DNA of 64,000 nucleotides from a virus (taxonomy: Duplodnaviria > Caudoviricetes), in the IMG/VR virus record IMGVR_UViG_3300031998_000009, positions 1-64,000 of that record; one strand, given 5' to 3'. Of the stretch, positions 19,795 to 58,535 are shown piece by piece (the stretch's first letter is position 1; every line of letters starts with the position of its first letter). Below the pieces are notes generated by a model that ran no database searches, was not told the DNA's origin, and saw only the letters and a list, made by a program, of their open reading frames with translations. Made by a program: the position numbers and the translations under genes.

Positions 19795-20364
19795 TCACCG
19801 TCTTTTCTTATTAGCTTTATCTAGTTTCTTTAAATACTGTTTTTCTTTGGAACGAAGATCTGTTACATAATTCTGAATCTTATACTTCATTTCTTCAGCT
19901 GCTTGATTAAATGTTTTTCCGGTAAGATTCACCCAATCTGCGATATCGGAATCATCATTTTTAGACTCATGTTCGGAGAATCGAAATGTAACATCGTTAT
20001 AAAGATCTTCATTATCATCATAAAAGTTATATAGTCTTCTATCTGCTGGGCGTTTGAAATTTAAGTCGATATAAGTAGAAAAACCGTAAGATCTAGAAGG
20101 TCTTACCTTGGGATTTCCAAAAACACCACATTCATCCTTCACTTCTTGGATCCATTCATTAACAAATCCGAACAGATCGTCTTTAATATCCTTTATCGGA
20201 TAAATACCGGCATAATCCGATTTCTTATTTGGATTAAAGTTTGGAATATAGTCATCAGAATACTTGATTTCTGTATTCTTCTCTAAAAATTCACAAAGTG
20301 ACATAACAAAATCTTTACCGGATAATTTTTCAAATAACATATCTTCATTAATTATATGTATCAT
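19795..20364 (-). CDS. Module gene B, copy 1 (LxE leader; GxSxYI...RxSxH family)
   Basis: MIHIINE..LFE leader; YGFSTYIDL and FRFSEH; paralog of 21528..22130 and 57553..58098. Confidence 0.6.
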   Translation of the reverse strand: MIHIINEDMLFEKLSGKDFVMSLCEFLEKNTEIKYSDDYIPNFNPNKKSDYAGIYPIKDIKDDLFGFVNEWIQEVKDECGVFGNPKVRPSRSYGFSTYIDLNFKRPADRRLYNFYDDNEDLYNDVTFRFSEHESKNDDSDIADWVNLTGKTFNQAAEEMKYKIQNYVTDLRSKEKQYLKKLDKANKKRR

Positions 20365-20385
20365 AATAAATCAACCTTTCTATAT

Positions 20386-20799
20386 TCAATCCCAATAACC
20401 TGTATCGATTTCTTTAGTATGTTCAATACGATATTTTTCTTCTTTTGTTACGATGTAATCAGTATCACACCAAATAGTACCTTTATAAGAAAAGAAACCC
20501 TTATCAGAATCTACAAAATAGGAAATATGTTCGGAACCTTTTTCAAACTGTCTACAAATTCTTTTATAAATATACGCTATCTTCTTTTTTGGAATATTAG
20601 GAATGTATTTAGACCCAATAGCGATATAAAAATAGGACCCATCTTTCAGATATACGATATACTCATCTGCGTTTCCTTCATTTTTGTCACAAAAATATCT
20701 AATTTTTCCAGTATCAATCTTTTTCTTATACCACATAATTTCTTTATAAAGTTGAGTCATGTACTTTTTAATCATAATTTCCTCCTGTGACAAACTCAA
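20386..20799 (-). CDS. Module gene A, copy 1
   Basis: EYIVYLKDGSYFYI..IP..IAYIYK; paralog of 22127..22495. Confidence 0.6.
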   Translation of the reverse strand: MSLSQEEIMIKKYMTQLYKEIMWYKKKIDTGKIRYFCDKNEGNADEYIVYLKDGSYFYIAIGSKYIPNIPKKKIAYIYKRICRQFEKGSEHISYFVDSDKGFFSYKGTIWCDTDYIVTKEEKYRIEHTKEIDTGYWD

Positions 20800-21200
20800 A
20801 TTTCACCTGTAATGACCTTACTTATAGCATCCAGTATATCTGTATCATTCTTGTAAACGGTTCTCATAATAGTTGCTAGGTCACCTGTATCAATTTCGTG
20901 ATTCCAGTGCATCCGTAAAGGTTTTTTGAAATTACTAACAAATTTAATAGCTTCCTTACTATATTTAAATTTACGAATATCACGATCATTATTATTTATA
21001 GTGATAGAATCATCGGAATGTAATATTATATCTAATTCTACATTATTTGCAGTCACTTTGAAACGTGGTTCATTATGGGATACTTTTCTGTCTTTTCCTA
21101 TCTCATCCACCCAAAAATCAAAGGGTTGACCTGTTGTATTTTTTCGTAGATTGGCATGTTCGTATAAACTTTCAAAATTATCTTGTATTAGTTTAATCAT
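20796..21200 (-). CDS. DUF4160-like protein with LxE leader
   Basis: MIKLIQDNFESLYE-HANL; TG..FDFWVD; HNEPRFKV. Confidence 0.55.
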   Translation of the reverse strand: MIKLIQDNFESLYEHANLRKNTTGQPFDFWVDEIGKDRKVSHNEPRFKVTANNVELDIILHSDDSITINNNDRDIRKFKYSKEAIKFVSNFKKPLRMHWNHEIDTGDLATIMRTVYKNDTDILDAISKVITGEI

Positions 21201-21214
21201 TGTTAGTTACTCCT

Positions 21215-21460
21215 TTATAAATTCCATTCCTTTTTATCGAAATTAGGATCTAAAAATTTATAAAGTGCTTTCCATGTGACATCGATACCATTTTCTCTTA
21301 ATGCTTCCTGAATATCTTCGAAGTCCGAATCGTGCCAAACTGTTCTTCCAAGTCTGTCATCTTCGGCTAATTTGTTATCGAAAACTTTCTTAAATATCTT
21401 TTTAAGTTTTCTATTATCTGTATCTATCACCTGTTTTTGAATATCTGTAATTTTAATCAT
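21215..21460 (-). CDS. Hypothetical protein, paralog of 62973..63209
   Basis: Shared MIKITDIQKQVID..DSDFE..VTW.A. Confidence 0.65.
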   Translation of the reverse strand: MIKITDIQKQVIDTDNRKLKKIFKKVFDNKLAEDDRLGRTVWHDSDFEDIQEALRENGIDVTWKALYKFLDPNFDKKEWNL

Positions 21461-21502
21461 TTAAGTTACCCCCTTAAAAATCCACATTCATCTTACATAT
21501 AT

Positions 21503-21531
21503 AGTATAACATATTTATATTGATTTGTCAA
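21503..21531 (-). promoter_or_regulatory. Early promoter P4
   Basis: TTGACA-17 bp-TATACT; -35 overlaps the stop of the upstream gene. Confidence 0.9.
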
Positions 21532-22130
21532 GAGTTTTTAGAAGAATTATTATTTAAAGATAATAAATAATTTTGTTCTTTTTCATGTAATTTTTGTATA
21601 TATTCACAGATTTTATTCTTCATTTCGTAAGATGCTTCTTCAAAAGATTTGTTACTGTAATCTACCTGATCTCGTATTACTTGTCCTATCTCATCCCTAT
21701 ATGGTGTTTTTCTTTGAACGTGATCTGTAAACTTAAAATGACAATTCTGATACTGTCCTTTATGTTCATTATAGTAGATTAATAAATCAGAGTTATTAGG
21801 TTTATTTAACTTGATATGAATATAATTGGAAAACCCAAAATAAGGAGATACTGTAAAACGTACAGATCTAACATCGGGTAAAGATTGTATTTCACTTATC
21901 CATTGCGAGATAAATTCCATAATGTCATTCTTTATTTCTTGTATTGGTTCTGATGTGACATATTCTTGTTCTTTTGATTTTATAAATTTACCGTCTCTAT
22001 TGATGATATATTGTTTTGAATGTCCAATAATATCCGTTTTCTCTAAATATTCAAGTAAAAACTTCACAAACTGTTTTCCGGTTAAACTGGAAAATAAAGA
22101 ATCCTCGTATAGTTGTATCAATTTAATCAC
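21528..22130 (-). CDS. Module gene B, copy 2 (LxE leader)
   Basis: GTG start overlapping the upstream TGA; MIKLIQLYE, FGFSNYIHI, FKFTDH. Confidence 0.6.
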   Translation of the reverse strand: MIKLIQLYEDSLFSSLTGKQFVKFLLEYLEKTDIIGHSKQYIINRDGKFIKSKEQEYVTSEPIQEIKNDIMEFISQWISEIQSLPDVRSVRFTVSPYFGFSNYIHIKLNKPNNSDLLIYYNEHKGQYQNCHFKFTDHVQRKTPYRDEIGQVIRDQVDYSNKSFEEASYEMKNKICEYIQKLHEKEQNYLLSLNNNSSKNS

Positions 22131-22495
22131 TCCCAATTATCATCGAAGGTTGTTTTAATAATTGCTGTGGTTTTATATTTTTTCATCATTTTAGAGATGA
22201 TATTTCTAGCTTCAGTTATTGTTATATTATATCCACCACGAAGATTATCAACGAACTCATAGTTATAGTTATTGTAGTTAGTCTTTCTAACATATAGTAC
22301 ATCGCTGAATCTAAAATCTGGAATTTTATAAGAACCGGGCTGGACATAAAACATACTTCTGTTCTTTAGAATGACAACATATTCAAGTGCATTTAAAAAT
22401 TCATTGTCAACACCGAATCCCCAAGAAGAATGGTGTTTGTAGTAATTTTTGATCTTTCTAATCTCTTTTAAGAGTTTTCTTCCTGTTTTATTCAT
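22127..22495 (-). CDS. Module gene A, copy 2
   Basis: EYVVILKNRSMFYV..IP..VLYVRK. Confidence 0.6.
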   Translation of the reverse strand: MNKTGRKLLKEIRKIKNYYKHHSSWGFGVDNEFLNALEYVVILKNRSMFYVQPGSYKIPDFRFSDVLYVRKTNYNNYNYEFVDNLRGGYNITITEARNIISKMMKKYKTTAIIKTTFDDNWE

Positions 22496-22531
22496 ACTTA
22501 CAAACCTCCAAATATGATATTTTACATATAT

Positions 22532-22560
22532 AGTATAACATATTTATATAGATTTGTCAA
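22532..22560 (-). promoter_or_regulatory. Early promoter P5
   Basis: TTGACA-17 bp-TATACT. Confidence 0.9.
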
Positions 22561-22590
22561 GTAGTTTTAGAAAAGTTTTTTATTTAACAA

Positions 22591-23367
22591 TTACTTTTCA
22601 ATCACATCGTAAGGAATCTTCTTACGTTTACCCCAGACTTTATATTCATCGTTCTCGGTTTTAATGAATTCTTTAGCTTTATTAACTAAACCGGGTAATT
22701 TACTTATTTCTTTTTTAAGTTTATCTGGGTTAAACTCAAAGTCACGTTCAGCAGCAATCATTTCGTCTTCTATTTTACCAATTTGTCTTGATATATCAGT
22801 AATAATCCGATCATATTCCGTTCTTTTTCCAGTTAGTCTTTCTTTTCTTTGATCTATAAGTTCTTTTACTACATCATAGGCATCGTTTAGTTGTGTTGCA
22901 TATTTAACTAAATGATTTCTTTGTAGTAGTTTAGTATAGTATCTTTTGTTTACCTCTGGGTTCCAATCTTTATCCCATACATATATAGTAGATGTAGGAA
23001 CATTAGAATATCCAGTCTCAGAGGGTTTAACTAACCCGGATAAAGCATCTCTTCTTTCCTGTCTACGTTTTTGAACATTAGCGCCACCTTCAGTTACCTC
23101 AAAAATATCAAATTCAGGTGCTTGACTAATCTTTAACTTATTTGGATTATACATAAATCTTCCCTGACCGTATACAGCAATGATCTCTCCATCACGAGTG
23201 AGCAGAATACTTTTATCCTTTATCTGTTGCCATCTATCTATATTAATAGGTTCAGCATATGAATTCTGTATGTTGATATATTCGTTCATTGCATCAAACA
23301 TATCCTTATTTATTCTAATGTTGTTTCTTCTTAAATCTGTAATAATATTTTCATTTACTAATATCAT
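22591..23367 (-). CDS. LxE-leader protein, distant paralog of 55044..55886
   Basis: MILVNE leader; RRQERR and KRYYTKLL..L..Y...L.DAYD segments align with 55044..55886. Confidence 0.55.
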   Translation of the reverse strand: MILVNENIITDLRRNNIRINKDMFDAMNEYINIQNSYAEPINIDRWQQIKDKSILLTRDGEIIAVYGQGRFMYNPNKLKISQAPEFDIFEVTEGGANVQKRRQERRDALSGLVKPSETGYSNVPTSTIYVWDKDWNPEVNKRYYTKLLQRNHLVKYATQLNDAYDVVKELIDQRKERLTGKRTEYDRIITDISRQIGKIEDEMIAAERDFEFNPDKLKKEISKLPGLVNKAKEFIKTENDEYKVWGKRKKIPYDVIEK

Positions 23368-23386
23368 GTATATCAACTCCTTTATA

Positions 23387-23425
23387 ATAAAAAAGAACTA
23401 CATATGATAATGTAGTTCTTTTATT
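23387..23425 (-). terminator. Terminator after the DUF5758-like array
   Basis: AAAAGAACTACAT/ATGTAGTTCTTTT. Confidence 0.8.
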
Positions 23426-23463
23426 GTTTATTTTATTGTATATAACAGATAATTGTTTATTTC

Positions 23464-23991
23464 TCATTCTTTAAGTTCATGTTCATTAAGGTGCGTTAAG
23501 ATTTTCAATATATCCATGCTTTGAGTATAAAACATAGCTTGTTGAAGCGATGTGAAATAATGTAACCCCATTCCACAAGCAATAGATTCATCTAATGTTA
23601 TAGAACCTAATGGTGTTTCTGCGATTTGGTCTGTTTTATATAAGGGTTTAAGAATTTTCTTTATATGTTTACCATGAGGTAAACCAACAAGATGCCGGTA
23701 ACATTCAAACATAGAATATGCTTCAGTTACTGCCAATGTTTCATGATTATATTTGTCTATATAGTTTTTATCAGTCAGTAAACCCCATGGAAACTTAAAT
23801 ACATAATATTTTGATACAGCGATAATGTTTACCTTTAATTTATTAGTTCTTTGTTGTGTAGGATATAGAGGATTATTTGGAACTATAATCACGGCATCTT
23901 CTGTAGGTTCTACTTCCATTATGCAAGGATACCACATATGTTTTGAATCAGTTCGTTCTCTATACGATATTCCAACTTTATATCCTATCAT
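23464..23991 (-). CDS. DUF5758-like protein (array copy 5)
   Basis: MIGYK..EDAVI..QRTNK..ACGMGLHYF. Confidence 0.65.
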   Translation of the reverse strand: MIGYKVGISYRERTDSKHMWYPCIMEVEPTEDAVIIVPNNPLYPTQQRTNKLKVNIIAVSKYYVFKFPWGLLTDKNYIDKYNHETLAVTEAYSMFECYRHLVGLPHGKHIKKILKPLYKTDQIAETPLGSITLDESIACGMGLHYFTSLQQAMFYTQSMDILKILTHLNEHELKE

Positions 23992-24018
23992 AACAAATGA
24001 CCTCCGAAATAATTATTT

Positions 24019-24552
24019 TCAATTCATATCATCAATATGTATATTATATATATTCGCCTTATATATTACCTGGGAAGCCCAGCTTCCATTTCCAGAAGGA
24101 CTTTCTTCATTATAAAAGTTTTTGGCATCTTCTTCTGTGACGAAAAAATGAATGCCTTGGGCACATTCCTTTGTAATATCTTCATCTAATGAATCTGGAC
24201 GGATATTATATTCATCAGATACTGTGTAAGTAAATGGGCGTTTTGATGATAACCGCATCTGTACAGATGTTAGATATTTTATTATATGATGGTAAATCAT
24301 ATCAGGAATAATTAAACTTATTGCATGAATTGAATATCCATGATCAACAGTCTTACCTGTTTCTAAATCTACAATAGAACAAACTCGACATTTATCACAA
24401 CGAAGTTTATTACCATATTTAGGTATAGACAATGGATCGCTATCGGATATAATAGGAGTTACTATTTTAGCATCTTCCGGGATTTCTAATGTTAGTAAAC
24501 AAGGTTTCCAAACATTATCATCTTTATATGCGGCTACTTTATATCCTATCAT
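24019..24552 (-). CDS. DUF5758-like protein (array copy 4)
   Basis: MIGYK..LEIPEDA..KLRCDK..ECAQGIHFF. Confidence 0.75.
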   Translation of the reverse strand: MIGYKVAAYKDDNVWKPCLLTLEIPEDAKIVTPIISDSDPLSIPKYGNKLRCDKCRVCSIVDLETGKTVDHGYSIHAISLIIPDMIYHHIIKYLTSVQMRLSSKRPFTYTVSDEYNIRPDSLDEDITKECAQGIHFFVTEEDAKNFYNEESPSGNGSWASQVIYKANIYNIHIDDMN

Positions 24553-24573
24553 AACAAAGAATCTCCTAAATAA

Positions 24574-25173
24574 TTATTTCCAATTCATTTTCTGTTTTAA
24601 TTCAGCTTTATGTAGTTCTGTAAGAAGTTCGTTCCTTAAATATACCAAGAAATTGGCGTATGCCAACACTTGCATAGGAAGCGAATTTTTCCAAGGTTCG
24701 ACACTACTTAGATTTTGATTTAACCAATTTAGACAATCTTCTTTAAGACGAAAGAAATGAATTCCATTAGAACAGGTTGCTTTTGGATTTGTATCGAACA
24801 TATCTGAAGCGATCTCTTTATTTCTTGTATATATTGTATAGTTATAGTTAGTTACAACATCAATATATTCCTCGTGGTCAAATCCGGCTTGTAATGATTT
24901 ACATATCTCATATACAGAATAAGTAGAATGAAGATGTTTTCTAGTTGTTAGTAAAACGGTTTCTATTACAATTTTGTTATTTTCTATAAATCTATGAAAG
25001 TCTAAACAATATGTTTCCTTCACAATAGCTTTTTGACATCTACATTTTTGATAATCACGTTCATTTTTCTGATAAGGGATGACTATTTCTGTACCTTTTG
25101 GAATCTCCAACTCTACCAGGTATAATTTCCATCTATCCTGGTCATAACCTATCGTTATTTTGTAACCTATCAT
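24574..25173 (-). CDS. DUF5758-like protein (array copy 3)
   Basis: MIGYK..LEIP..KCRCQKA..TCSNGIHFF. Confidence 0.75.
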   Translation of the reverse strand: MIGYKITIGYDQDRWKLYLVELEIPKGTEIVIPYQKNERDYQKCRCQKAIVKETYCLDFHRFIENNKIVIETVLLTTRKHLHSTYSVYEICKSLQAGFDHEEYIDVVTNYNYTIYTRNKEIASDMFDTNPKATCSNGIHFFRLKEDCLNWLNQNLSSVEPWKNSLPMQVLAYANFLVYLRNELLTELHKAELKQKMNWK

Positions 25174-25696
25174 AATTAAACCCCTTTCGTAGTAACTCGT
25201 TTGATCTCCGGATTATAGATCGTGCCCAACTATCCTCATAATATATATCAGGATCGTTATAAAAGTGTCTTGCTTCGACTTCCTGATAAAAGAAATGTAT
25301 ACCATTGGCACATTCTTCTTTTATGTTCTCATCTAAAGAATCTGGATAAATATAATCGAATGATGATGCTGTATAATGAAATGCATATTTATCTAACCAC
25401 ATTTGTATAGGAGTTATGGATTTTCTTATTTGATAATGTGCGGGATCATTAATAATTAAACCTAGTATGTATAAAGAAAATCCAAAATTAACAGACTTAC
25501 CGATTTCTAAATCGGTAATAGAGCAAACTCTACATTTATTACAGCGTAGTTTATTGCTATACGTAGGTATTGATAATGGATTATTGTTATATGTAACAGG
25601 AGTCACTATTTTGGCATCTTCAGGAATTTCTAATTTTATTAGACATGGTTTCCAGATATTATTGTCCATATAGGCTGCTATTTTATAACCTATCAT
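25142..25696 (-). CDS. DUF5758-like protein (array copy 2)
   Basis: MIGYK..LEIPEDA..KLRCNK..ECANGIHFF. Confidence 0.75.
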   Translation of the reverse strand: MIGYKIAAYMDNNIWKPCLIKLEIPEDAKIVTPVTYNNNPLSIPTYSNKLRCNKCRVCSITDLEIGKSVNFGFSLYILGLIINDPAHYQIRKSITPIQMWLDKYAFHYTASSFDYIYPDSLDENIKEECANGIHFFYQEVEARHFYNDPDIYYEDSWARSIIRRSNELLRKGFNYDRLQNNDRL

Positions 25697-26213
25697 ATGT
25701 TTCCTCCTGGCAAATATAAAAATTAAGTTGTTTCATAATCGAAACTGCCCAATCTGTAGACTTACAATAATCTTTAGCATCCTGTTTAGTTAGAAAGAAA
25801 TGTATACCTTCTCCGCATTCACAGAATTCGGATTTGTTTATTTCTTCTAAACAAATAGATTTTTCCGAGGGTTTATAAACACCTCCTGGATAGTTTTCTA
25901 CATAGTGTTCGATAGTTAGATGTGGACGAAATTTAATCTGTTTACTATATTTACTTATGATAGTTTGAATAACAAAAAGTGAATAGGCTTCCGGAACAAA
26001 GTCTCCAGATTGTAAATCTTCGATGGTCATTACCCTAGCTTTATTACAACGATGTTTCTTACTCTTAACTCTAGATTGTTCTTTCATCATCCAGGAATTA
26101 GGTGTATATGGATGAATCACAGTGGCATCATCTGGAATATATAAAGTAACAATGCAAGGTTGAAAATAAGTACCATCATAATAAGCTGCAAGTTTATATC
26201 CAATCATGTACAA
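25683..26213 (-). CDS. DUF5758-like protein (array copy 1)
   Basis: MIGYK..LYIPDDA..KHRCNKA..ECGEGIHFF. Confidence 0.75.
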   Translation of the reverse strand: MYMIGYKLAAYYDGTYFQPCIVTLYIPDDATVIHPYTPNSWMMKEQSRVKSKKHRCNKARVMTIEDLQSGDFVPEAYSLFVIQTIISKYSKQIKFRPHLTIEHYVENYPGGVYKPSEKSICLEEINKSEFCECGEGIHFFLTKQDAKDYCKSTDWAVSIMKQLNFYICQEETYDRL

Positions 26214-26219
26214 ATCACC

Positions 26220-27591: not shown

Positions 27592-29004
27592 TTATAGAAT
27601 CCTTTTCATAATTTGTTTTGTGTTTACATCCATCATAAACTGTTCAATTCGTTTCATATCAGGTTTATCCGGAAGTACTGAGTGTTCTTTAGCGTAGTCA
27701 AGTCTAGATTCATAATCATGTACTAGGTCAAAGAACTCCTTATTAGGTCTCCCATCACTTCCAAGATATTTACCGTTACGAATATTCATGAGTAAATCGT
27801 GTTCTTTTTCTCTATATGTATTAATCTCACCACGAAGTAACATATCTTCACACATCATATAGAGTCTTAACAAGTGCATGGAATGTTTAGCAATTTTACC
27901 GTGAGCCATTGCTTTTTCATTTCGTTGACTATTCTTCCTATAATCACGAAGTGTTGTATTAATGGAACCTAGAACTCCTGCAAGACTTTCTGCTGGATAA
28001 CTCTTAATGTTAAAATCAAAAACAATTTCTCCATTTTCAAGTCTTACATCAATACCGTTCATATTGTGTTGCTGTTCAAGCATATGTCTCATACCTTGAA
28101 TTGTTTTTACAATATGGGCATTTAATTGTTCTTCTGTAAGAGCTACCAGAGCTTTCTGCTGTAATCTATACATCTGTGAATTAGCATATCCCATAAACGA
28201 ACTAATACATCTATTGGAAAGGAACATATCCTTGTTTGATAGTAATTCTTTTCCTATATCGGACAAGTACAAATAATGTTCCGATTTAAGACCTAACATT
28301 TCAATAGTGTTAGGGTTACAATTCGTCAACAAACTAACAATCTTTTTAAGAGAATAAATTGTGGTATCTGTAGGTTCGTTAATAACTTGTTCAAACCCTT
28401 TACCTAACAGAATATCTTCTGGACTATGTAGTGCAATTCCTCTAATATCTACATCAGAAGTTTCTACATTTGTACCGTAAGCATATGATCCACCTAATCC
28501 AAGAAGAATTAAATTATTCAATTCAGGTGTTGTGTTCAAGAAATTATAATCTCTATAGTCTACATGAATTCCTAATTCGTCTAATTTAGCTTGAACAAGT
28601 TGTGCCCTTGACTTTGTTTCAGGGTAAGGTTCAACACCGAAACCAGTTAGTCTGAAGTCACTACCCACAGTTCCATTGCTTTCCAAATAACCTGTGCCCA
28701 TTGTATAAAAATGTAGGTTTGTTCCTAGTTTGAGCAGCTCACTAATAATTCGACCACATTCTGTATCCAGAAATTCTATATCGGCATATACATTTTTATT
28801 TTCGATATACATATCTTTAATAACAGCTGAAGCATGGGTCATATCCTGTAAAGTAACATCGTCTAGATTAGGTTCATAGAATACAAACATACTCGTTTCT
28901 AGTTCTTTGAATTGTTTAACCATTAGTTCAGCTGTTTCTTTTGTATAAACATGGTGTTGTCTTGTAGGTGTTTCTAATTCTAATACAGGAACTTTTAAAA
29001 GCAT
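27592..29004 (-). CDS. Fusion of a degenerate T4 gp21-type prohead protease domain and an RlaP-type (Pol-beta superfamily) nucleotidyltransferase
   Basis: C-terminal GGSYAYG..SDVDIRG, NPNTIE, KHSMHLLRL. N-terminal ~125 aa follows the gp21 layout (VY.KE, HASAVI, IEFLDTECGRI, MGTG.L, DFRL) without the catalytic His/Ser motifs. Confidence 0.75.
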   Translation of the reverse strand: MLLKVPVLELETPTRQHHVYTKETAELMVKQFKELETSMFVFYEPNLDDVTLQDMTHASAVIKDMYIENKNVYADIEFLDTECGRIISELLKLGTNLHFYTMGTGYLESNGTVGSDFRLTGFGVEPYPETKSRAQLVQAKLDELGIHVDYRDYNFLNTTPELNNLILLGLGGSYAYGTNVETSDVDIRGIALHSPEDILLGKGFEQVINEPTDTTIYSLKKIVSLLTNCNPNTIEMLGLKSEHYLYLSDIGKELLSNKDMFLSNRCISSFMGYANSQMYRLQQKALVALTEEQLNAHIVKTIQGMRHMLEQQHNMNGIDVRLENGEIVFDFNIKSYPAESLAGVLGSINTTLRDYRKNSQRNEKAMAHGKIAKHSMHLLRLYMMCEDMLLRGEINTYREKEHDLLMNIRNGKYLGSDGRPNKEFFDLVHDYESRLDYAKEHSVLPDKPDMKRIEQFMMDVNTKQIMKRIL

Positions 29005-31893: not shown

Positions 31894-32385
31894 TTAATGG
31901 TTATCGTTATCAATAATAACATGAATCCCAGGGTTAAACAAGAATTCTGCTACAGAAGTAACATGCCAGTCATTCAAGAAATTTTGATAACTAAATGCAT
32001 CATTTGTATTCGTATACAGCGACTGATGATCAATACAGTAATCACCAAAATCTGTAATTACAATTCCAGAATAACCATATTCTTTAAGTTCAGATTCGAG
32101 TTGTTTAATTTCAGGAAGTTCCTTATAACTTTTCTCAAGATCAAAGTCTTCCTCGTCATAATTATGATCTTCCGCGATCATTGTTACAAGATAACTTAAT
32201 TTTTCAGAAGGTGTAGTTAGTTCATCTGGACCCCAACTATACCAACCAAGTTCCACCTCTACCTCATTGTTTTCATTTTTAGGTAGGTTTTTCATTCCTC
32301 TCCATTCTTCCTTACCTTTAATAGTAACAGAATGACATGAAGAACTGTTTGTTTCAAAAACTCCTCTTCTGATTGAAATTTTCAT
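31894..32385 (-). CDS. FETNSSS-motif protein
   Basis: MKISIRRGVFETNSSSCHS..EKLSYL..IDHQS..IIDNDNH. Confidence 0.7.
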   Translation of the reverse strand: MKISIRRGVFETNSSSCHSVTIKGKEEWRGMKNLPKNENNEVEVELGWYSWGPDELTTPSEKLSYLVTMIAEDHNYDEEDFDLEKSYKELPEIKQLESELKEYGYSGIVITDFGDYCIDHQSLYTNTNDAFSYQNFLNDWHVTSVAEFLFNPGIHVIIDNDNH

Positions 32386-32387: not shown

Positions 32388-32918
32388 TTAATCTTCCTCC
32401 TCGAATTCTTCATTTTCATCATTATTATAGGGTGTGTCAACTGTATTCTTATTTACAATTCCAAGATGAACCATATCCATGAAGATATTGTATTCATCAC
32501 CGTCACAAATAATAATATATTTCTCATTAACCAAGAAATCTTCCAGTGAGATATTGTGATCAGCTAAAAAACAAGTAAGGTTTACATCACCTTCACTATA
32601 TCCACTATCATAAACATCTGTGAAACCCTTAAACTCCGGGATGTACTTTTCTACAATATTTTCCAGTTCTTCCATCAGAGTATCTTTATACCTCGCCATC
32701 TCGTAAACGTAACAAACCTTCTCGTAAAACTTTGACAGGTATCGAAAAGGAGCTCTTCCGAATGAAGGATTATCCATCTTCCACATACCTTTACCATTGA
32801 TAAAATTTTCAAGAATATAGTCTCTGTCTACAGCAATCTTATCACTATTACTATTTATTGCAATAGAGTGACTAGAAGAACTATTGGTTTCAAATACACC
32901 ACGTCTGATAGAAATCAT
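32388..32918 (-). CDS. FETNSSS-motif protein
   Basis: MISIRRGVFETNSSSSHS..EKVCY..IICDGDE. Confidence 0.7.
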   Translation of the reverse strand: MISIRRGVFETNSSSSHSIAINSNSDKIAVDRDYILENFINGKGMWKMDNPSFGRAPFRYLSKFYEKVCYVYEMARYKDTLMEELENIVEKYIPEFKGFTDVYDSGYSEGDVNLTCFLADHNISLEDFLVNEKYIIICDGDEYNIFMDMVHLGIVNKNTVDTPYNNDENEEFEEED

Positions 32919-44343: not shown

Positions 44344-44946
44344 TTAGGAGAATGTTCCATTTTCGGTTTGCACTTCTTCTAGTTTTATTACCATTTTTTC
44401 GTAAATATCTTTTCCTATGTTTTCTTTTGTTAGACCCTCTAAAATTTCACTTACCCAGGAAGGGGAACGCTTTATACGTTGACGTTCAAACATCATACTG
44501 TCATTTATATAGTGAAGAGCTGGTTGAATAGTAGGAAAGAAATGAATGCCTCTAGAGCATATTGTAGTCGGGTCTGTATCTATGTTTCTTACATATAGTG
44601 ATGTTCCAACTTTATATAAAAGAATATCATCATATGATATCATATCGTCCCGAACATAGGATCTTACTCCGAATAAAGACAGTGCCTTAATATCATTATC
44701 TTCCATAGCTAGTTTATAATGTACGATATCCCCTATCACAATCTTTTCTTCTAGTTTAAAAATAGCTGTTACTTTTACACGGTCTGTTCGAAGTTTACAC
44801 GTTTCAACTCCGAAGGGGTAAACAACTATTGCAGATACAGGAATCTCTAACTCCACAAGACAAGGTTTCCATTTATTGCTAACATCGTCAAAATAACAGG
44901 CTATCTTATAACCCTTCCGATCCGATTTATAATAGTTATGTTCCAT
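44344..44946 (-). CDS. DUF5758-like protein (dispersed sixth copy)
   Basis: KGYKI..LEIP..KLRTDR..ICSRGIHFF. Confidence 0.7.
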   Translation of the reverse strand: MEHNYYKSDRKGYKIACYFDDVSNKWKPCLVELEIPVSAIVVYPFGVETCKLRTDRVKVTAIFKLEEKIVIGDIVHYKLAMEDNDIKALSLFGVRSYVRDDMISYDDILLYKVGTSLYVRNIDTDPTTICSRGIHFFPTIQPALHYINDSMMFERQRIKRSPSWVSEILEGLTKENIGKDIYEKMVIKLEEVQTENGTFS

Positions 44947-51211: not shown

Positions 51212-51506
51212 TCTTTTCAGTTATTAACTCTTTAACTTTGTTCATATGTCTTTTTGAATATAGCTTCATAGAATAGCAATGTAACAAACTTACGATTTCT
51301 TCAAAAATTTCCTCACTGTCCAATTTTTGTGATCCAATTTCACTAACGACAATTATTTCAGTATTAAATCGAAGAAATAAATGTTTAAATAATTCAAATC
51401 CAACTCTTGAAAGTCGATCTTTATATGTAATAATTACCTTTTCTATTTTACCTGCAATAATGTCATCCAGCATTTTGAAGAAATCATTTCTGTTTTCAAA
51501 TGATAT
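51183..51506 (-). pseudogene. tnpA: N-terminally truncated IS607 TnpA serine recombinase
   Basis: ISFENRNDFFKMLDD..VIITYKDRLSRVGF..YSMKLYSKR present; MerR-like HTH and catalytic YARVS absent. Confidence 0.8.
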
Positions 51507-51912
51507 AACTTCTTTTTGTGTTTCCTTCTTTATAGTAACGCCAGGTTCCTTTACTAGGATTAAACAGGTAGATATAGTCTACATCCTGATATGATGAGTT
51601 TTCCATAAATTCTTTCTTGTTTTTGTATTTTCTATAGCCTTCCTCTACCGGATCATCTCCTCTATCTCGGATATAGAAAACAGAAACACCTTTTTGTCTG
51701 TGATCAAAATCATGTCTACCTGATGTAGGTTCCAGTTTTTCATAAATACAACTTGCATTTCCCATATAAATTAACGAGTATATTCTGTCTACGCTTTTAT
51801 AGTGCTCGGATAGCAGTTTTCCCATACGTTCTGGATAACCGTCACAATGTACTCGAATGCTACTTACTTCTTTTGTCTTACTATCAATAATGGCAATAAG
51901 AGCGGCTGTCAT
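51496..51912 (-). CDS. Conserved phage protein (HxDGYP family)
   Basis: SIRVHCDGYP..G..L..HY; FYIRDRGD; DYIYLF. Confidence 0.65.
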   Translation of the reverse strand: MTAALIAIIDSKTKEVSSIRVHCDGYPERMGKLLSEHYKSVDRIYSLIYMGNASCIYEKLEPTSGRHDFDHRQKGVSVFYIRDRGDDPVEEGYRKYKNKKEFMENSSYQDVDYIYLFNPSKGTWRYYKEGNTKRSYII

Positions 51913-51943
51913 GGACGTTACCTCCTATTTAATCACTAAATAT

Positions 51944-51972
51944 AGTATAACACAAACAAGTTAAAAAGTCAA
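51944..51972 (-). promoter_or_regulatory. Early promoter P11
   Basis: TTGACT-17 bp-TATACT. Confidence 0.9.
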
Positions 51973-51989
51973 GTAACTTTAAAAAATAT

Positions 51990-52583
51990 TTAATTTCTAA
52001 CAATTCCATTATTGTGAGCTCCACAATTAGCACAATATTTATGTTTCTTTATAAGCTCGGGTATTGTTATTACCTCGTATCCACATCTTCTACACCTATA
52101 TAGAGTACCTTCTTTTTGTTCACCTTGTCTCCACCAATAATCAATTTCAGGTTTAAATTTAGGGGTACCTTTTGAGCACATACTGTTCAATTCACTTATG
52201 ATTTTCTTTAAACAGTCTACAAGACAATTCTCACACTCTGAAAGATATGCTGGAAGATAACGATCTATGTATTCGGTAGGTACAACATCCAAAGCAGTGC
52301 TTGCTTTGAATCCATAATTGACTTTATCATCTATTGTGGAGACATATATTTGAATATCTAGACAAGGATCAAATGAGATCGTATGGAAAGGAATAATCCT
52401 TATCTCATATTTAATAGGTATATTATTTATGGACTGTGGTACAATTTTAGTACATAGTTCTCGAGCTCCATTTACTAATGATTCGAGATTCTCCTTTGCA
52501 ATATGAACAGCAGATACAATAGTATCTAAATCACCCTGTACCGTATCTACTTCAAATCTGTCTGGATTGTGTGAAATAATCAT
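51990..52583 (-). CDS. Hypothetical protein with C-terminal zinc finger
   Basis: YRCRRCG..YCANCGA. Confidence 0.55.
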   Translation of the reverse strand: MIISHNPDRFEVDTVQGDLDTIVSAVHIAKENLESLVNGARELCTKIVPQSINNIPIKYEIRIIPFHTISFDPCLDIQIYVSTIDDKVNYGFKASTALDVVPTEYIDRYLPAYLSECENCLVDCLKKIISELNSMCSKGTPKFKPEIDYWWRQGEQKEGTLYRCRRCGYEVITIPELIKKHKYCANCGAHNNGIVRN

Positions 52584-53335
52584 TTCTTTACTCCTTTTAT
52601 GGTTTTCTTCAATAAAGCAGGTTTAACGAAACTCCACTCGTATACATCAACGATTTTATCTAAAATTAGATAATTTCCTTTACAGGAGCAACTACATTCC
52701 AATCTGTTACATCCACAAATAGAACATATCTTTCTTTTTACCCAGCAAGATATAGAGGCTTTATTAAGAATACCGTATTTGATATCATTTACCAATGATT
52801 CGTTTTCTTTATTACGAACTAAATATGCCCATGCAGTGATGTGATAGTATTGGTCATTGTATTTTGTTTTTCTTGTTTTGTCTAAATGAAGTTCTGTTTT
52901 AAATATTCTTGCTGGAACTGTGTTGTTTTTATAATCGGAGAGTAAACCTGTAGAACCTACAAACTTTTTTGTCATGTCTACCATGGCATAATAAGAAAAG
53001 CACTCATTATCATCATCCAGATCATTGTTTATGAGTTCAAAGTTAAACAGGAACACAGTATCTGGATTATATTTTTGTTTTGTAAACTCTTCAAATTCTT
53101 TTATTGGTAACCCGTCATCGGCTATTTCTTTAGCTACATTAGAAAACTTTCGACCACATTCTAAACAATATTTACTATATCTAGGTACAACAGATCCACA
53201 ATTAGAACAGTTTACAGAATTGTTAGTTTCACTTTCAAATTCTAATAGTGAGGCTTCCTGTGTAGAGGAAAGGTCTAGTTTTCTTATCTCGTCCGAAAAG
53301 TTATCCAATATTTTTTGAATACTATAATATAACAT
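52580..53335 (-). CDS. Zinc ribbon plus degenerate prophage-type prohead-protease-like domain
   Basis: CSNCG..YCLECG, then NDLDDDNECFS..FVGSTG..ARIF.TEL..AWAYLVR..IKYGI..ASISC..CSICG..YEWSFV.PA. Confidence 0.5.
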   Translation of the reverse strand: MLYYSIQKILDNFSDEIRKLDLSSTQEASLLEFESETNNSVNCSNCGSVVPRYSKYCLECGRKFSNVAKEIADDGLPIKEFEEFTKQKYNPDTVFLFNFELINNDLDDDNECFSYYAMVDMTKKFVGSTGLLSDYKNNTVPARIFKTELHLDKTRKTKYNDQYYHITAWAYLVRNKENESLVNDIKYGILNKASISCWVKRKICSICGCNRLECSCSCKGNYLILDKIVDVYEWSFVKPALLKKTIKGVKK

Positions 53336-53346
53336 AGTGTAACTCC

Positions 53347-53820
53347 TTATTCAGATACGACTTTTCTTTTTGGAGGTTTCACGAAAACTGGATAGTCGTT
53401 ACATCCTTGGTAGATACAAAACACCTTACCACTACTTGTCAAAGCAAGTTGCTTGGTTAAATCGTACAGGCCAACATATCTATATTCTTGTTTCGTTGCG
53501 AAGTCGTAGAAGCGTTGTCCAAATTTAAGTTTGTTGATTCCTATCTTTTCTCCCATTTTAGGAATATTATAGTTTCTGAATTTTGCCCATGTGATAGCAA
53601 GACCCCATCGAGTAGATTTATTACCATACTGTGTTCTGTACATCTTGTTCTCCTTCCAATCAATAAGAACACATTGTTTCTTATTCTGGAAGGTATTAAA
53701 CATTATCTGAACATCCGGAAACCTATTTTGATTTTCTGTGAAGTCTTTGTTCATTTCGTCTACCCATTTACAAAATCCTTCATAAGAAACAATATCCATG
53801 TCTGTAATAGTTCTGTTCAT
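53347..53820 (-). CDS. Hypothetical protein
   Basis: 157 aa with RBS. Confidence 0.55.
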   Translation of the reverse strand: MNRTITDMDIVSYEGFCKWVDEMNKDFTENQNRFPDVQIMFNTFQNKKQCVLIDWKENKMYRTQYGNKSTRWGLAITWAKFRNYNIPKMGEKIGINKLKFGQRFYDFATKQEYRYVGLYDLTKQLALTSSGKVFCIYQGCNDYPVFVKPPKRKVVSE

Positions 53821-54065
53821 TTTTTATTACCTCCTGCAATATTTATTGTTCGTAACAGACCTAATATCCATATGTAAAACCAACACAAACTAAATGAAGC
53901 GAATACAAGTGATCTACTAAAGATTTCTTCTTTCTGAAATAAATATAGTGCTGCAAGAAACATGATAAAGGTTATGATGTTTAGGATAATGGAACCTACC
54001 AATTTTAATACAAATTTCATATCAGTTCTCCTTATCAAGATAGCATTTATAATGTTCGGAACCAT
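53817..54065 (-). CDS. Small two-TM membrane protein
   Basis: Two hydrophobic helices. Confidence 0.55.
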   Translation of the reverse strand: MVPNIINAILIRRTDMKFVLKLVGSIILNIITFIMFLAALYLFQKEEIFSRSLVFASFSLCWFYIWILGLLRTINIAGGNKK

Positions 54066-54450
54066 CTGCGATAAGTTTTACTTTTTTAATTCCATTATAA
54101 TTATTTAGATTAAACTTATCTATCACCCATACCTTTAAATCATCTTGTGGAATATGTGGAGAATGGAATATTTTAGCCACTCCATTACTAATCTCTACTC
54201 TTCCTCTTGGATAATAATCAAACGGTTTTCCTTCTGTAAGTTTTCTATCTAGAGTAGACCAAACTTTCTTATGGTTATAGTTATCAGATCCAGTAGATGA
54301 CATAGAAACAGGAATATGAAAATTTTCGTCATTGATATAACCTAAACTATCACAAGGAATTTGAAAATAAAGTTTAGAACTTTCTATATTATCTATGTCT
54401 GTTATCCAAAATATTCCACGGTACAACTGTTTATCTTCTGTAAGTAGCAT
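54022..54450 (-). CDS. YYPRGRV-family protein with LxE leader
   Basis: MLLTE; GIFW, HKKVW, YYPRGRV, HYKC. Confidence 0.65.
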   Translation of the reverse strand: MLLTEDKQLYRGIFWITDIDNIESSKLYFQIPCDSLGYINDENFHIPVSMSSTGSDNYNHKKVWSTLDRKLTEGKPFDYYPRGRVEISNGVAKIFHSPHIPQDDLKVWVIDKFNLNNYNGIKKVKLIADGSEHYKCYLDKEN

Positions 54451-54480
54451 TTATATCACCTCACAGTTATTATTAAATAT

Positions 54481-54509
54481 AGTATAACACAAACACACCG
54501 AAATGTCAA
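54481..54509 (-). promoter_or_regulatory. Early promoter P12
   Basis: TTGACA-17 bp-TATACT; hairpin AAAACTCCTACA/TGTAGGAGTTTT at 54533..54564. Confidence 0.9.
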
Positions 54510-54582
54510 GTGGTTTTTAGAAATAAGAAAATAAAAACTCCTACAATTAAAATGTAGGAGTTTTGTGTAAAATATACAATAA

Positions 54583-55017
54583 CTATTTAATGCAACATTT
54601 ATGACATTTATAATGATCACCAGTTACTCCACCTTCAGAACCGATATATTGTATTTCACAATTTTTATTAAGACGGAATTCCCATTTTATCTCATCCAAA
54701 ATATCTGGTTCGTTTATACAATTATCAATATAAATGTATACATCATAGTGGTGAAACTGTTCACTATTATATATAGGATTAACCATAACTCGACCACGAG
54801 GATAATAATTATATGGAACAACAATACCACCTATAACATGCGAAAACTTTATTTCATTCCAGAGCTTTCTGTGATCTAAGGTTGTGGAAAATCTTCCGGT
54901 TATATCCACAGGATCAGTGAACATATATAGTTTATTATCAATAAACCAAAATATTCCTTCTCGAGGAGAGTTAAGATTTTCTTTTAGAAAATTATTGTGT
55001 TCCACAATAAGTCTCAT
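54583..55017 (-). CDS. YYPRGRV-family protein with LxE leader
   Basis: MRLIVE..FLKE; GIFW, HRKLW, YYPRGRV, HYKC. Confidence 0.65.
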   Translation of the reverse strand: MRLIVEHNNFLKENLNSPREGIFWFIDNKLYMFTDPVDITGRFSTTLDHRKLWNEIKFSHVIGGIVVPYNYYPRGRVMVNPIYNSEQFHHYDVYIYIDNCINEPDILDEIKWEFRLNKNCEIQYIGSEGGVTGDHYKCHKCCIK

Positions 55018-55043
55018 TTAAATATCCTCCATATAAATTAAGG

Positions 55044-55886
55044 TTATCTCATAATCTCATTATCCAAATACTGTTTCATTTCACGAACAATTCGTTTGAG
55101 CTGTAAGATATAGGATTTAGCATGACCTCTAGCATAATTTTTATAATTTGGATTGGTTTCGTAATTAGAATCTTTATATGCAAGTTGCAGATTACGAAGT
55201 GTATCAAGGAAATTATTCGTCATATTTTTAATATCTAGAATCTTATCAGGTTCATTTCTAAATTGTCTTAACATACTATTAAGAGTATCGTATGTTTCAA
55301 AACCATCTTCGAGAATAGAATCATACTGCTGTAGACCCATCTCACCAAGCATATCTTTATACTTTTTAAGATCTGTTTTTTCGTAACCGGACTTATCGTA
55401 TCCATAGGTGTCCATTCTATCACGGTTACGATCAACTGGTTTGTTACTGCTTCTAGACTGACGGAGATCAACAACATCAGGACTTACTTCAAGATATCCA
55501 AAATCTGTGATCATATTAAGAAGATACTTTACAGGAACATCAGAGGCATATTTCTTATTTCTTCCACCGAAATCAATTTTAGGATTATTAACACGAGCGG
55601 CATAAACAAACTCGTTGCCACGTTCATCTGTTCCGCGCATAACAGCAACCTTATCCTCGGAGTCCATAATTTGATTAAACTCTCTCGATGTTCTCGGTAT
55701 AGGAAGTTCATGATATATAGTAGTATTTAAATCTAAATTAGATACATTTCCAAATGTGGACCTAGGTGCTGAATTAAAGTTACCAGAAGGACCCATTTTA
55801 CCAAACCATCCTTTACTTGTTTCAATAGTATCTTTCAACCAACTAGGAATACTAGAATCTAAAGCTTCTCTAATTTGTAATTTCAT
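55044..55886 (-). CDS. LxE-leader protein
   Basis: MKLQIRE-A; DKSGY motif; RBS-supported start at 55886. Confidence 0.6.
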   Translation of the reverse strand: MKLQIREALDSSIPSWLKDTIETSKGWFGKMGPSGNFNSAPRSTFGNVSNLDLNTTIYHELPIPRTSREFNQIMDSEDKVAVMRGTDERGNEFVYAARVNNPKIDFGGRNKKYASDVPVKYLLNMITDFGYLEVSPDVVDLRQSRSSNKPVDRNRDRMDTYGYDKSGYEKTDLKKYKDMLGEMGLQQYDSILEDGFETYDTLNSMLRQFRNEPDKILDIKNMTNNFLDTLRNLQLAYKDSNYETNPNYKNYARGHAKSYILQLKRIVREMKQYLDNEIMR

Positions 55887-55887
55887 A

Positions 55888-55992
55888 AATAACAACTCCT
55901 TAAAAATAATTCAGTATTTATCCTCATGTTAGGATTATTACACTATTTATTGTTATGTGTAGTTATTATTTTTTATAACTAGAGTTGTTATT
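55888..55992 (-). promoter_or_regulatory. Long hairpin covering the RBS of 55044..55886
   Basis: AATAACAACTC/GAGTTGTTATT and AAAAATAAT/ATTATTTTT nested inverted repeats. Confidence 0.5.
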
Positions 55993-55994
55993 TT

Positions 55995-57390
55995 TTAAAC
56001 ATCTTCAGTTTCCGATTCTGTATTAATTTCTTCTCTCTTATACTGAATACCGTTTTCATAAAAGATATCCCAGTCATCTTTATCAAAGTAACTATCAAAG
56101 TATTCGTAAGTTCTTTTCAAGATTATAATTGTCTTCCAATGTGTAGGAGGAACAAGAACTACCCAACCTTCACCATACTGAACGGACAACTCTTTACAAA
56201 CATCGTGAAGTTGCTTATCGTTAAGATCCCATTCGATAAATTCAATATCATTGAGGGTATCGTTTTTGGTAACATGACCACTACCGTTATCGGCGTTCTT
56301 AAAAAGAATGTAGGTATAATCTTTCAGGTCTTCTGTAAGTTCGAGTCCTTTACGCCAATGCTTCTTGGCAAGGTCTTTTGGACCATAGCAACAAGAGCAC
56401 TGACCGGGTTTGTAAGTATAATGTGCGAAATCGATATCACACTTTTCACGGAGTTCTTTGAGTTTGAGATCATTGTAAGTAGTCATTTTAATATCCTCCT
56501 TTTAATTAAGAAATAACACCACGTTTTTTCATGTCGTAATAGCACCATCTATTAACAGCGTTATCTTCCATTTCCTTGAACTTGTCCATCTGTTCGTCGA
56601 ATTCCTTTTTGTACTCGTCGATCATGTTTCTCTGATTTGTGATGGACTTTCCAAACCAGTCATAACCGTTATTGAGGTCACTAAACATATTGGACATCAT
56701 AGTGTCTAACATACTGGTTTTATCCTGAAACCACATTTCAAACCAATTAGTTCCTTCTGTGATTTTCACAATCAACCCTCCTCAAGCACCAACGGCTTCC
56801 TCTCACCCTTCCACACAAAAGTATGCCGTGCCGAATAACAATCACTACCGTCCTGTTCCAGAGTAGTTGTAAAGCACTTCCAGCATTTAAGTACGGTTTT
56901 AACAAGATAATCAAGTCTTACATGATCGTGTTTCCAGTCTCCCCAGCTGATGTCCACATAAACAATATTCGGATTGTCTCTATTGGAATAAACTTCACCA
57001 TAAAGATTATTTTCTCTCATAAAGTCGTGAACTGTTTTTTCCATATCCAGCATTGTTATATCCTCCTTAAAAAATATCCACACAACTGTCCTGTCCTACT
57101 GGGTGAAATCTGTTTACTACATTTCCTATTAATTTCACAGGTTTAAATGTTCCTGTATAATCAATATACTGTACTTTTCCTTTTTCTGTGATATAAACAG
57201 TTCCTTCCTGTGTGTTAGTTACAAGTTCTTTTCCAAATGGCATAACTCTTGTAATTTGGAAATCAACTTGTAAGGTGTTGTCCTTGTAAGGAGTTACTTT
57301 GAACATTGAAACTTTGTAGTTTGTTGTATAACACATATTATGAACTTTTCTACATACATCTTTTATAGCATTAAGTTGTTTGATTGTCAT
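55995..57390 (-). CDS. Four hypothetical early genes (55995..56486, 56506..56775, 56772..57083, 57067..57390)
   Basis: RBS-preceded ORFs downstream of P13. Confidence 0.55.
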
Positions 57391-57447
57391 TCTGAAAACT
57401 CCTCTCTGCTATTTTTCGTGTGTTTTAACTGTTTTACTTACATATAT

Positions 57448-57476
57448 AGTATAACATATTTTATAGAAAATGTCAA
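57448..57476 (-). promoter_or_regulatory. Early promoter P13
   Basis: TTGACA-17 bp-TATACT; hairpin AAAATCCTCACA/TGTGAAGATTTT at 57500..57530. Confidence 0.9.
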
Positions 57477-57552
57477 GTAGTTTTTGAAATATAGTAAAGA
57501 AAAATCCTCACAAATAAATGTGAAGATTTTGTATAGATTATATAAAATTAAG

Positions 57553-58098
57553 TTAATTAGTTTCTTTTAACTTTGTTTTAACTTTACCATATTTTTCCAA
57601 TTCATATTTTGTTATTCTGCTTTGTACTTCAGATAGTTTTGTTTTAAATAATTTCATAACAGCTTTTCGAAGATTTTTAGGTTTCATCCCTACAATAGGA
57701 ACAGGTAAAGTAGGTCCATTTTCTGGATGAACATCTTTATGATCCGATAATCGTATAGTATATGAATAAATTTCTTCTAACTTATCTTGTGGAACATCCT
57801 CCGGATGTCTAAATACAATATCAATGTAATTAGATAAACCCCTTGGATTTTTTCTTCGAGAATTACGGGCACTAGCACTTTCTACATAAGAAAATTGTTC
57901 CAATTCCTCTGCAATAGGATCTAAATATCTTGCCCTTATGTACAGACGTGTCTCTACTTGGTCTCTATAGGAGTCACCACATAATATTTCATCTTCGGGT
58001 TCTAATAACTCTTCTTCTAACGGACCTACCGTATCTAGATAAGGTATCATACTTACATAAAGTATATTACTAAAGGATTCACTAATGGTTAATTTCAT
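57553..58098 (-). CDS. Module gene B, copy 3 (LxE leader)
   Basis: MKLTISE; RGLSNYIDIVF; IRLSDH. Confidence 0.6.
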   Translation of the reverse strand: MKLTISESFSNILYVSMIPYLDTVGPLEEELLEPEDEILCGDSYRDQVETRLYIRARYLDPIAEELEQFSYVESASARNSRRKNPRGLSNYIDIVFRHPEDVPQDKLEEIYSYTIRLSDHKDVHPENGPTLPVPIVGMKPKNLRKAVMKLFKTKLSEVQSRITKYELEKYGKVKTKLKETN

Positions 58099-58535
58099 GG
58101 TCTATTTATCCTTTCTAAAAATCTAAACCTTTCTTCTTTGGAAGGAACATATGTTAAAGAACAGATAAAGTTAATATAATCATATTCAACATAACCATAT
58201 TGCTTCATTATATCATAAGTATCACCTAATACAGAATCATAATGTTTATCTTCGTCGTAAAAATAAGTGATATTATTTATATCATTTAATATGATTAGGG
58301 CTGTATCTTTATCCGTAGTACAATCAATCACGTAATATTTAGAATTTACAAAAACAATATAGCTATGGTTACCTTGTTTATGATAAATACTATCATAGTA
58401 GTCAACTGTGTCCGAATATTCTAAAGAGTTTATATCAAGTTCCTGAATTTCCATATTACCCCTATTTATAAGAAACTCGAGACTTTTCTTTATATTTATT
58501 ATATAACTATTTAGAATATTTAACATAACCATCAC
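58095..58535 (-). CDS. Module gene A, copy 3 (diverged)
   Basis: ATGA overlap with gene B; SYIVFVNSKYYVI..ITYFY weakly like copies 1 and 2. Confidence 0.45.
   Translation of the reverse strand: MMVMLNILNSYIINIKKSLEFLINRGNMEIQELDINSLEYSDTVDYYDSIYHKQGNHSYIVFVNSKYYVIDCTTDKDTALIILNDINNITYFYDEDKHYDSVLGDTYDIMKQYGYVEYDYINFICSLTYVPSKEERFRFLERINRP

Follow-up and report, generated by a model that had tools for sequence, protein, structure and literature searches.

A putative cargo protein family coupled to untagged upstream partner genes in an uncultured phage with T4-type head genes

Three times in the stretch of viral DNA analysed here (the window: the first 64 kb of the 198,524-base IMG/VR record IMGVR_UViG_3300031998_000009, a record of an estimated 86% completeness), a small gene, A, is followed by a larger gene, B, whose product begins with a short leader peptide that A lacks. 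This repeated two-gene module was proposed in a first-pass annotation of the window sequence; its three pairs exist, with all six open reading frames (ORFs) present on the minus strand, and a search of the whole genome adds a fourth pair outside the window. Our preferred reading, to which we give a probability of roughly 0.38, is that B is cargo resembling the internal proteins of phage T4, which would be tagged, trimmed and delivered with the DNA, and that A, translated from the same message without a tag, is the cognate partner of B. B is read as cargo because its start peptide fits the cutting rule of the gp21-type head protease that the phage encodes. That B is cleaved and packaged and that A binds it, together with any role as an enzyme or a toxin, are points that we infer and do not observe.

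The paired genes and their linkage in relatives

Every B gene of the genome has an A gene directly upstream (4/4). Counted with hidden Markov models (HMMs) built in this analysis, the genome holds four B genes, two A genes of type A-I (A1 and A2), two of type A-II (A3 and A4) and no orphans (Table 1). The GTGA overlap at A2/B2 and the ATGA overlap at A3/B3, both noted at first pass, are seen in the sequence; the A4 and B4 reading frames overlap by 8 nucleotides (nt), and a gap of 21 nt separates A1 from B1. Because the reading frames are so closely spaced or overlapping, the arrangement suggests that two proteins are made from each mRNA in roughly equal amounts. All six ORFs proposed earlier are real, and two of their starts have moved: that of A1 shifts from 20799 to the ATG at 20775, which is preceded by an AGGAGG ribosome-binding site and agrees with orthologs that all start MIKKYM, and that of A3 most likely shifts from 58535 to the ATG at 58526. 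The start of B2 is ambiguous (22136, 22130 or 22121).

By sequence comparison, all B proteins are homologous and fall into two subfamilies, B-I and B-II. B1 and B2 are clear paralogs (34% identity, expect value [E] 2e-31), B3 matches B1 weakly in pairwise comparison (E 4e-5), and profile-profile alignment with hhalign joins the B1/B2 group to the B3 group with 95.6% probability (E 1.2e-8). The motifs G(F/L)SxYI and (R/K)x(S/T)(D/E)H, picked out in the first-pass annotation, were found in all B copies. Among 34 family members at 17–75% identity, residues G94, S96, Y98 and H132 are invariant; E25, Y39, S90, P106 and Y122 are nearly invariant in the family, whose members are about 180–200 amino acids (aa) long. 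A search of 1.84 billion cluster representatives with the B profile returned 41 clusters only, none of them annotated, and B appears to be a rare, phage-restricted family. No match for the pair region, B1, B3 or the C-family gene described below was found by megablast and tblastn in 50,697 GenBank phages, and a scan of 185,579 species genomes, limited by the B patterns that it used, contained no B relative; a broader B alignment held no stretch conserved enough to serve as a scan pattern. ESM Atlas look-ups with B1 and with the composite protein P0047 gave no usable match. One further B-profile match, the RPGRIP1-like eukaryotic protein P0067 (2984 aa), was judged spurious.

The A proteins, about 125–145 aa long, are of two types, A-I being basic (isoelectric point [pI] 8.9–9.7) and A-II acidic (pI 4.5–4.6). 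The mutual likeness of three A proteins reported at first pass holds for A1 and A2, which are homologous (E 7e-7 pairwise, 1e-9 via orthologs), and is only hinted at for A3, since homology between A-I and A-II was not found by hhalign (E 0.33). The hints of kinship are a BLAST match (E 7e-4) that aligns ISYFVDSDK with ITYFYDEDK, a match of the A-I HMM to the A-II domain in register (E 0.013) and a D-x-x-x-G motif common to both types. In one relative, on contig L020, a single 240-aa A-I + A-II fusion lies directly upstream of B, which would make the two types at least functionally linked. Pairwise identity averages 34% for A against 40% for B, with A the lower in 38 of 45 comparisons, and close orthologs are 44–52% identical in A where they are 56–74% identical in B.

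Contexts of B homologs were surveyed down to about 20–25% identity. With each gene pair counted as one context, an A-type gene directly precedes B in 13, one more is marginal and one lacks A. The linkage looked for in relatives thus holds in most contexts over that whole range of B identity, on contigs that run from 1.3 to 313 kb and come from samples of rumen, sewage and other origins. The 13 are made up of the four pairs of this genome, one orthologous locus shared by L004–L007 and counted once, and eight others. An A-type gene directly precedes B at the L004–L007 locus and on L011, L013, L020, L021 and L022; L015 carries two A-B pairs, and the two pairs of L008 are one A-I/B-I and one A-II/B-II. 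The subfamilies co-vary throughout, A-I with B-I and A-II with B-II. Behind a third A-II gene on L015 comes a protein that at its N-terminus is similar to the tail of B-II. On L020, itself a related 201.9-kb IMG/VR record, the A-I + A-II fusion occupies 755–1477 and is overlapped downstream by 1474–2691, a 405-aa fusion of B-II with a C-family domain through the joint ...ECKLRIRE/L (here and below, a slash follows the last residue of a tag).

The leader peptide and the head protease

Family-wide, B proteins begin M-x-x-(L/I)-x-x-E-(D/S). The leader comprises 7–10 residues ending L/I-x-E, reading MIHIINE/D in B1, ...LYE/D in B2, MKLTISE/S in B3 and MIKLLHE/D in B4. In the B1 model, mean predicted local distance difference test (pLDDT) scores are 48 for residues 1–10 and 65 for residues 11–20, and the leader peptide is predicted to be disordered and to lie outside the B fold. 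The LxE leader of the first-pass annotation is thus borne out as a flexible L/I-x-E start in all B copies. The statement that A has no leader also stands: its invariant Glu12 sits inside a confidently predicted N-terminal helix (residues 3–22 of A1, pLDDT 94–96). The tag is shared well beyond B, beginning some 20–45 otherwise unrelated proteins of the phage. Of 299 genes, 20 begin with the motif [KR][LIVM]x[LIVM]x[ED] in its strict form, where 2.8 would be expected, and 46 with a loose form, where 14 would be expected.

The window is AT-rich (about 32% G+C), with nearly all genes on the minus strand. Outside it, the genome holds a structural block with a Gp23-family capsid protein (E 1.4e-45), a Peptidase_S77 prohead protease, a portal and a sheath, and PHROG matches in the genome include head protease, major head and portal. 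The protease gene (genome 168632–170350) encodes a member of the T4 gp21 family (47.1 bits against a Peptidase_S77 cutoff of 27) that is fused to a coiled-coil region. The capsid protein is 37–39% identical to capsid proteins of Bacillus, Listeria and Streptococcus myoviruses and is more distantly related to those of about 2000 T4-like phages. Several of the relatives' sample names read as rumen metagenome studies, and one related contig bears a dockerin-domain gene near its A-B pairs (L008:2285–2761); sample names and dockerin gene point to cellulolytic Firmicutes as hosts. Because of these names, this gene and the capsid and protease matches, we consider the source to be an uncultured phage with T4-type head genes that probably infects rumen Firmicutes.

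In T4, gp21 cleaves behind the Glu of L/I-X-E and takes off N-terminal propeptides whose length runs from 7 residues (Alt) to 65 (gp23); T4 internal proteins are loaded via a 10-residue capsid targeting sequence, and Alt is trimmed at its C-terminus too (PMC9026906; PMC3012670). A protease of the T4 gp21 type in the present phage makes a cleaved, capsid-targeting leader plausible.

The peptide that begins B also occurs between domains. P0047 and P0048 have B joined to a C-family domain via ...ES(L/F)(K/R)LxIS(E/R)..., P0050 has the same two domains joined via two tandem joints, ESLKLKIRE/SYEPTIKLRIRE/R, and P0039 is a B-B tandem with the joint KLTIRE/D. C-family homologs are stand-alone tagged genes in this genome (4639–5646, 58645–59196 and 178674–179849) and are fused to the C-terminus of B in relatives. 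Because the peptide serves both as gene start and as inter-domain joint, the tag appears to behave as a processing site and not as a translation-start quirk. Natural fusions of this kind (B-C, B-B, tandem joints, A-I-A-II) offer independent support, at the level of sequence, for protease processing in this uncultured clade. Composite B forms were seen among P0039, P0047, P0048, P0050, P0054 and P0060, one such form (on L024) having an Asp/Glu-rich tail of about 220 residues and no A gene upstream. Two other proteins carry the tag internally, which suggests that they are two-part polyproteins: one is encoded outside the window at genome 180794–182050 (EESVKLKIKE/T at residue 70) and the other at L015:5932–6966 (KMKLTIKE/S at about residue 150).

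A second protease-like domain lies within the window. The first 122 or so residues of a 470-aa protein (27592–29004) resemble a head maturation protease (phrog_207, E 9e-8) and match the phage's own protease with E 0.001; they are fused to an RlaP-type nucleotidyltransferase. This protein was set aside as a processor of early tagged proteins: the segment that aligns with VSSRG reads YTMGTG, and the domain appears to be without the serine motif.

Predicted structures, promoters and competing explanations

In the B1 model, helices at 16–75 and 109–117 and a basic C-terminal helix at 152–188 accompany four strands (86–89, 96–101, 125–130 and 141–146), which form an alpha/beta core that carries GFSTYI and RFSEH. 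Because R128, S130 and H132 alternate along strand 125–130, they are expected to point to the same face of the sheet. The A1 model consists of a helix, five strands and a helix. Foldseek searches of PDB and BFVD with the two models gave no match above noise (PDB E 0.27 or worse); a weak BFVD row, a "large polyvalent protein associated domain" protein at E 0.036, is not significant. VIA-align, in a wide search and a second look, gave best Z scores of 5.5 for B1 and 4.0 for A1, where the usual chance level is 7–8, and the B1 matches at 5.5 (actin capping protein and small aminotransferase domains) are generic. Searches of Pfam, PHROGs and PADLOC yielded nothing above noise for A, B or their neighbours, and PDB sequences contained no match to the B or A profile.

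The first-pass annotation had suggested that B is a small BECR-like RNase and had named RelE, barnase and EndoU as folds for comparison with Foldseek. This identity is without support, because there is neither a family match nor a fold match above noise: no PBECR, RelE, barnase or EndoU Pfam family was found in the 34 B members (E <= 0.1), and no BECR-fold chain, RelE, barnase and EndoU included, is among the listed Foldseek or VIA-align matches of B1, with the proviso that a missing fold match does not exclude a BECR fold. A1 and B1 have confident predicted models without a matching solved structure, and are good structural targets.

Thirty-eight near-identical promoter-like sites, TTGAC(A/T)-N14-16-TGnTATACT, occur genome-wide, all but three of them on the minus strand; those upstream of A2 and A3 read TTGAC(A/T)-17-TGTTATACT. 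Judged from sequence, the class probably represents phage early promoters that are read by the host polymerase. The earlier remark that two pairs come first behind a strong promoter holds for A2 and A3, each of which has a promoter-like site directly upstream. Another such site lies directly upstream of A4, so that three of the four pairs stand directly behind one. The A1-B1 pair lies within an operon of the order 21215–21460, 20796–21200, A1, B1, 19528–19788, headed by a further site of the class. The structural block at 140–176 kb contains none of the 38 sites, and no late-promoter consensus emerged from it.

In the mechanism that we propose, each two-gene operon would give one mRNA, from which A and B would be made together. 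B would be loaded into the prohead through its L/I-x-E tag, as T4 internal proteins are, the head protease would trim it after Glu, and B would then be delivered into the host with the DNA. A would be the cognate binding partner of B: as a holder or an inhibitor, it would remain in the cell and keep freshly made B silent or in solution up to the point of loading. Given the early-type promoter ahead of the pair, A may in addition silence B that arrives from a virion, early in infection. A bolder version, which we regard as improbable, has virion-delivered B act as an effector in the first minutes, after which early A would silence B until packaging, a toxin-immunity logic built into cargo. If true, it would amount to effector-antidote cargo built on two families with no match among solved folds and diversified into cognate sets.

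Several observations weigh against B being packaged cargo. Capsid cargo is expected to be expressed late, and the promoter class seen upstream of the pairs is only the early type, of which the structural block has no member; a late promoter may be present as well. Taken as a whole, B is mildly acidic, unlike the basic internal proteins of T4. One composite form, P0054, ends ...KLRIKE, placing a tag-like peptide at its extreme C-terminus, which simple N-terminal targeting would not explain. Of the contexts outside the 13, L023 has a marginal A-like neighbour only (E 0.017), and L024, a 345-kb contig, has no A upstream of a B that bears a long acidic tail. Finally, because homology between A-I and A-II could not be demonstrated, "A" may be two different partners.

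The promoters are the first of several points in favour of a quite different account, in which A and B are two subunits of an early cytoplasmic host-takeover or anti-defence factor and the tag has another use, for example as a recognition or processing signal outside the head or as an expression-related start. The sites that immediately precede three of the four pairs are sigma-A-like and of a type with no member in the structural block, the pairs lie among small early-region genes, their coupled arrangement fits an obligate heterocomplex, and nothing in them matches any toxin, antitoxin or defence model. Such a factor is harder to reconcile with the tag itself, whose use as a domain joint, including in tandem, argues for a protein-level processing site, and whose surrounding region is predicted to be disordered and outside the fold; the head protease is the only protease with that cutting rule seen here, the second protease-like domain (27592–29004) being apparently without its serine motif. 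We consider this account the main rival of the cargo reading, possible if doubtful.

A strict toxin-antitoxin or toxin-immunity pair, in which B would be a toxic enzyme (possibly a nuclease, with a Ser/Tyr/Arg/His patch) and A its neutraliser, packaged or not, was the core idea of the first-pass annotation and overlaps with the cargo reading; in this strict form it seems to us unlikely. It would explain the type II-like layout, in which a small gene comes first and runs into a larger one behind it, the invariant polar G-x-S-x-Y and H kept to about 20% identity, a partner that evolves faster and is of two types where B is one family, and paralogous cassettes that have diverged as cognate sets. 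Yet Pfam, PHROGs, PADLOC and PDB sequences contain no toxin, antitoxin, BECR or PBECR match, no fold match rises above noise (best Z 5.5 for B1 and 4.0 for A1), and A has no recognisable DNA-binding domain. The restriction of the B profile to 41 clusters and the empty, pattern-limited scan of 185,579 species genomes also speak against it, as does the position of A, since polymorphic toxin systems place the immunity gene downstream and not upstream. That the genes stand side by side only through a chance duplication in one genome, without functional meaning, is hardly credible. The A2-B2 locus could be taken that way: A2-B2 and two downstream genes resemble a recent local insertion or duplication, relatives having a single pair at that locus. 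Linkage recurs, however, in most other contexts, in both subfamilies, in fused variants and at B identities down to about 20–25%, and on these gene neighbourhoods chance adjacency is excluded by the linkage survey.

Genomic setting and comparison with known systems

Table 1. Coordinates of the gene pairs and associated features (window positions unless marked as genome positions)
Feature	Position	Strand	Basis
A1, type A-I partner, 129 aa, pI 8.9	20386..20775	-	ortholog starts and ribosome-binding site; model pLDDT 90.3
B1, 189 aa, leader MIHIINE/D	19795..20364	-	ORF, family alignment; model pLDDT 89.8
A2, type A-I partner, untagged, 122 aa, pI 9.7	22127..22495	-	A-I HMM, E 1e-33
B2, subfamily B-I, start overlaps A2 stop (GTGA)	21528..22130	-	homology to B1
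A3, type A-II partner, untagged, ~143 aa, pI 4.6	58095..58526	-	A-II HMM, E 2.5e-55
B3, subfamily B-II, 181 aa, leader MKLTISE/S, overlaps A3 stop	57553..58098	-	
A4, fourth pair, outside window	genome 85347-85847		A3 vs A4, E 5e-10
B4, fourth pair, outside window	genome 84812-85360		B3 vs B4, E 1e-39
Early-type promoter-like site, heads A1-B1 operon	21503..21531	-	
Early-type promoter-like site (TTGACA-17-TGTTATACT), directly upstream of A2	22532..22560	-	
Early-type promoter-like site (TTGACT-17-TGTTATACT), directly upstream of A3	58561..58589	-	
Terminator-like hairpin, closes A1-B1 operon after gene 19528-19788	19492..19522	-	
Terminator-like hairpin, directly after B3	57501..57530	-	
C-family gene, leader MKLHIQE/R, just upstream of A3-B3	58645..59196	-	E 1.5e-13 to P0047 C-terminal half
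Second, closer C-family gene, leader MSIKLNILD/E	4639..5646	-	E 4e-95 to P0047 C-terminal half

Promoter-like sites of the window also include 8000–8028, 12791–12819, 19441–19469 and 57448–57476. The small gene that follows B1 (19528–19788) is conserved in relatives. Just downstream of the A1-B1 operon lie genes for an NAD-dependent DNA ligase (16927–18969) and a DUF6011 protein (18944–19450), a neighbourhood that is kept in relatives L005–L007. Paralogous genes are found elsewhere in the window as well. Five tandem copies of 175–199 aa, all starting MIGYK..., span 23464–26213, with a sixth relative of the array 18 kb away at 44344–44946; the genes at 21215–21460 and 62973–63209 form a pair that starts MIKITDIQKQVID..., and those at 31894–32385 and 32388–32918 an adjacent pair that starts (K)ISIRRGVFETNSSS....

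The likeness to the T4 internal proteins (IPI, IPII, IPIII) and Alt lies in a gp21-family protease, a gp23-family capsid protein and a short L/I-x-E N-terminal peptide that is common to otherwise unrelated proteins. A leader of 7 residues equals in length the Alt propeptide, the shortest in T4 (PMC9026906). The cargo of T4 is made up of accessory proteins of diverse kinds, some internal proteins being directed against host defences (PMC3012670; PMC9391042). B resembles neither IPI-III nor Alt in sequence or fold. Unlike the T4 internal proteins, the pairs described here lie behind an early-type promoter, B is not basic, and B has a dedicated partner gene. To our knowledge, no T4 internal protein has a dedicated untagged partner gene.

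Type II toxin-antitoxin systems share with the pairs two small, overlapping, co-transcribed genes of which the smaller comes first, a faster-diverging partner and several divergent copies per genome. They differ in that A and B match no known toxin-antitoxin family, A is without a recognisable DNA-binding domain, B carries a tag of phage cargo type, and the pattern-limited bacterial genome scan contained no relative. The likeness of B to PBECR/BECR RNases (RelE, barnase, EndoU, colicin E5/D) is a loose one, of helices followed by a small antiparallel sheet and of conserved Ser/Tyr/Arg/His residues, with no Pfam match in the 34 members. Polymorphic toxin-immunity pairs have the opposite order, with the immunity gene right behind the toxin domain; A is always upstream of B where the two are paired.

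T4-type internal proteins are a phage's first molecules in a new host, and the few that have been studied are anti-defence factors or host modifiers. Against this background, the new element is a cargo-type family whose genes almost always come coupled to an upstream gene for a partner without the tag; the family has diversified into cognate sets and fused variants, and neither protein has a recognised fold. Cargo that nearly always travels in the genome with an untagged partner would add a design rule to such systems, that of cargo needing a keeper. Genomes could then be screened by a simple signature, in which a gene with the tag is coupled to one without it upstream, for cargo whose activity or danger calls for control.

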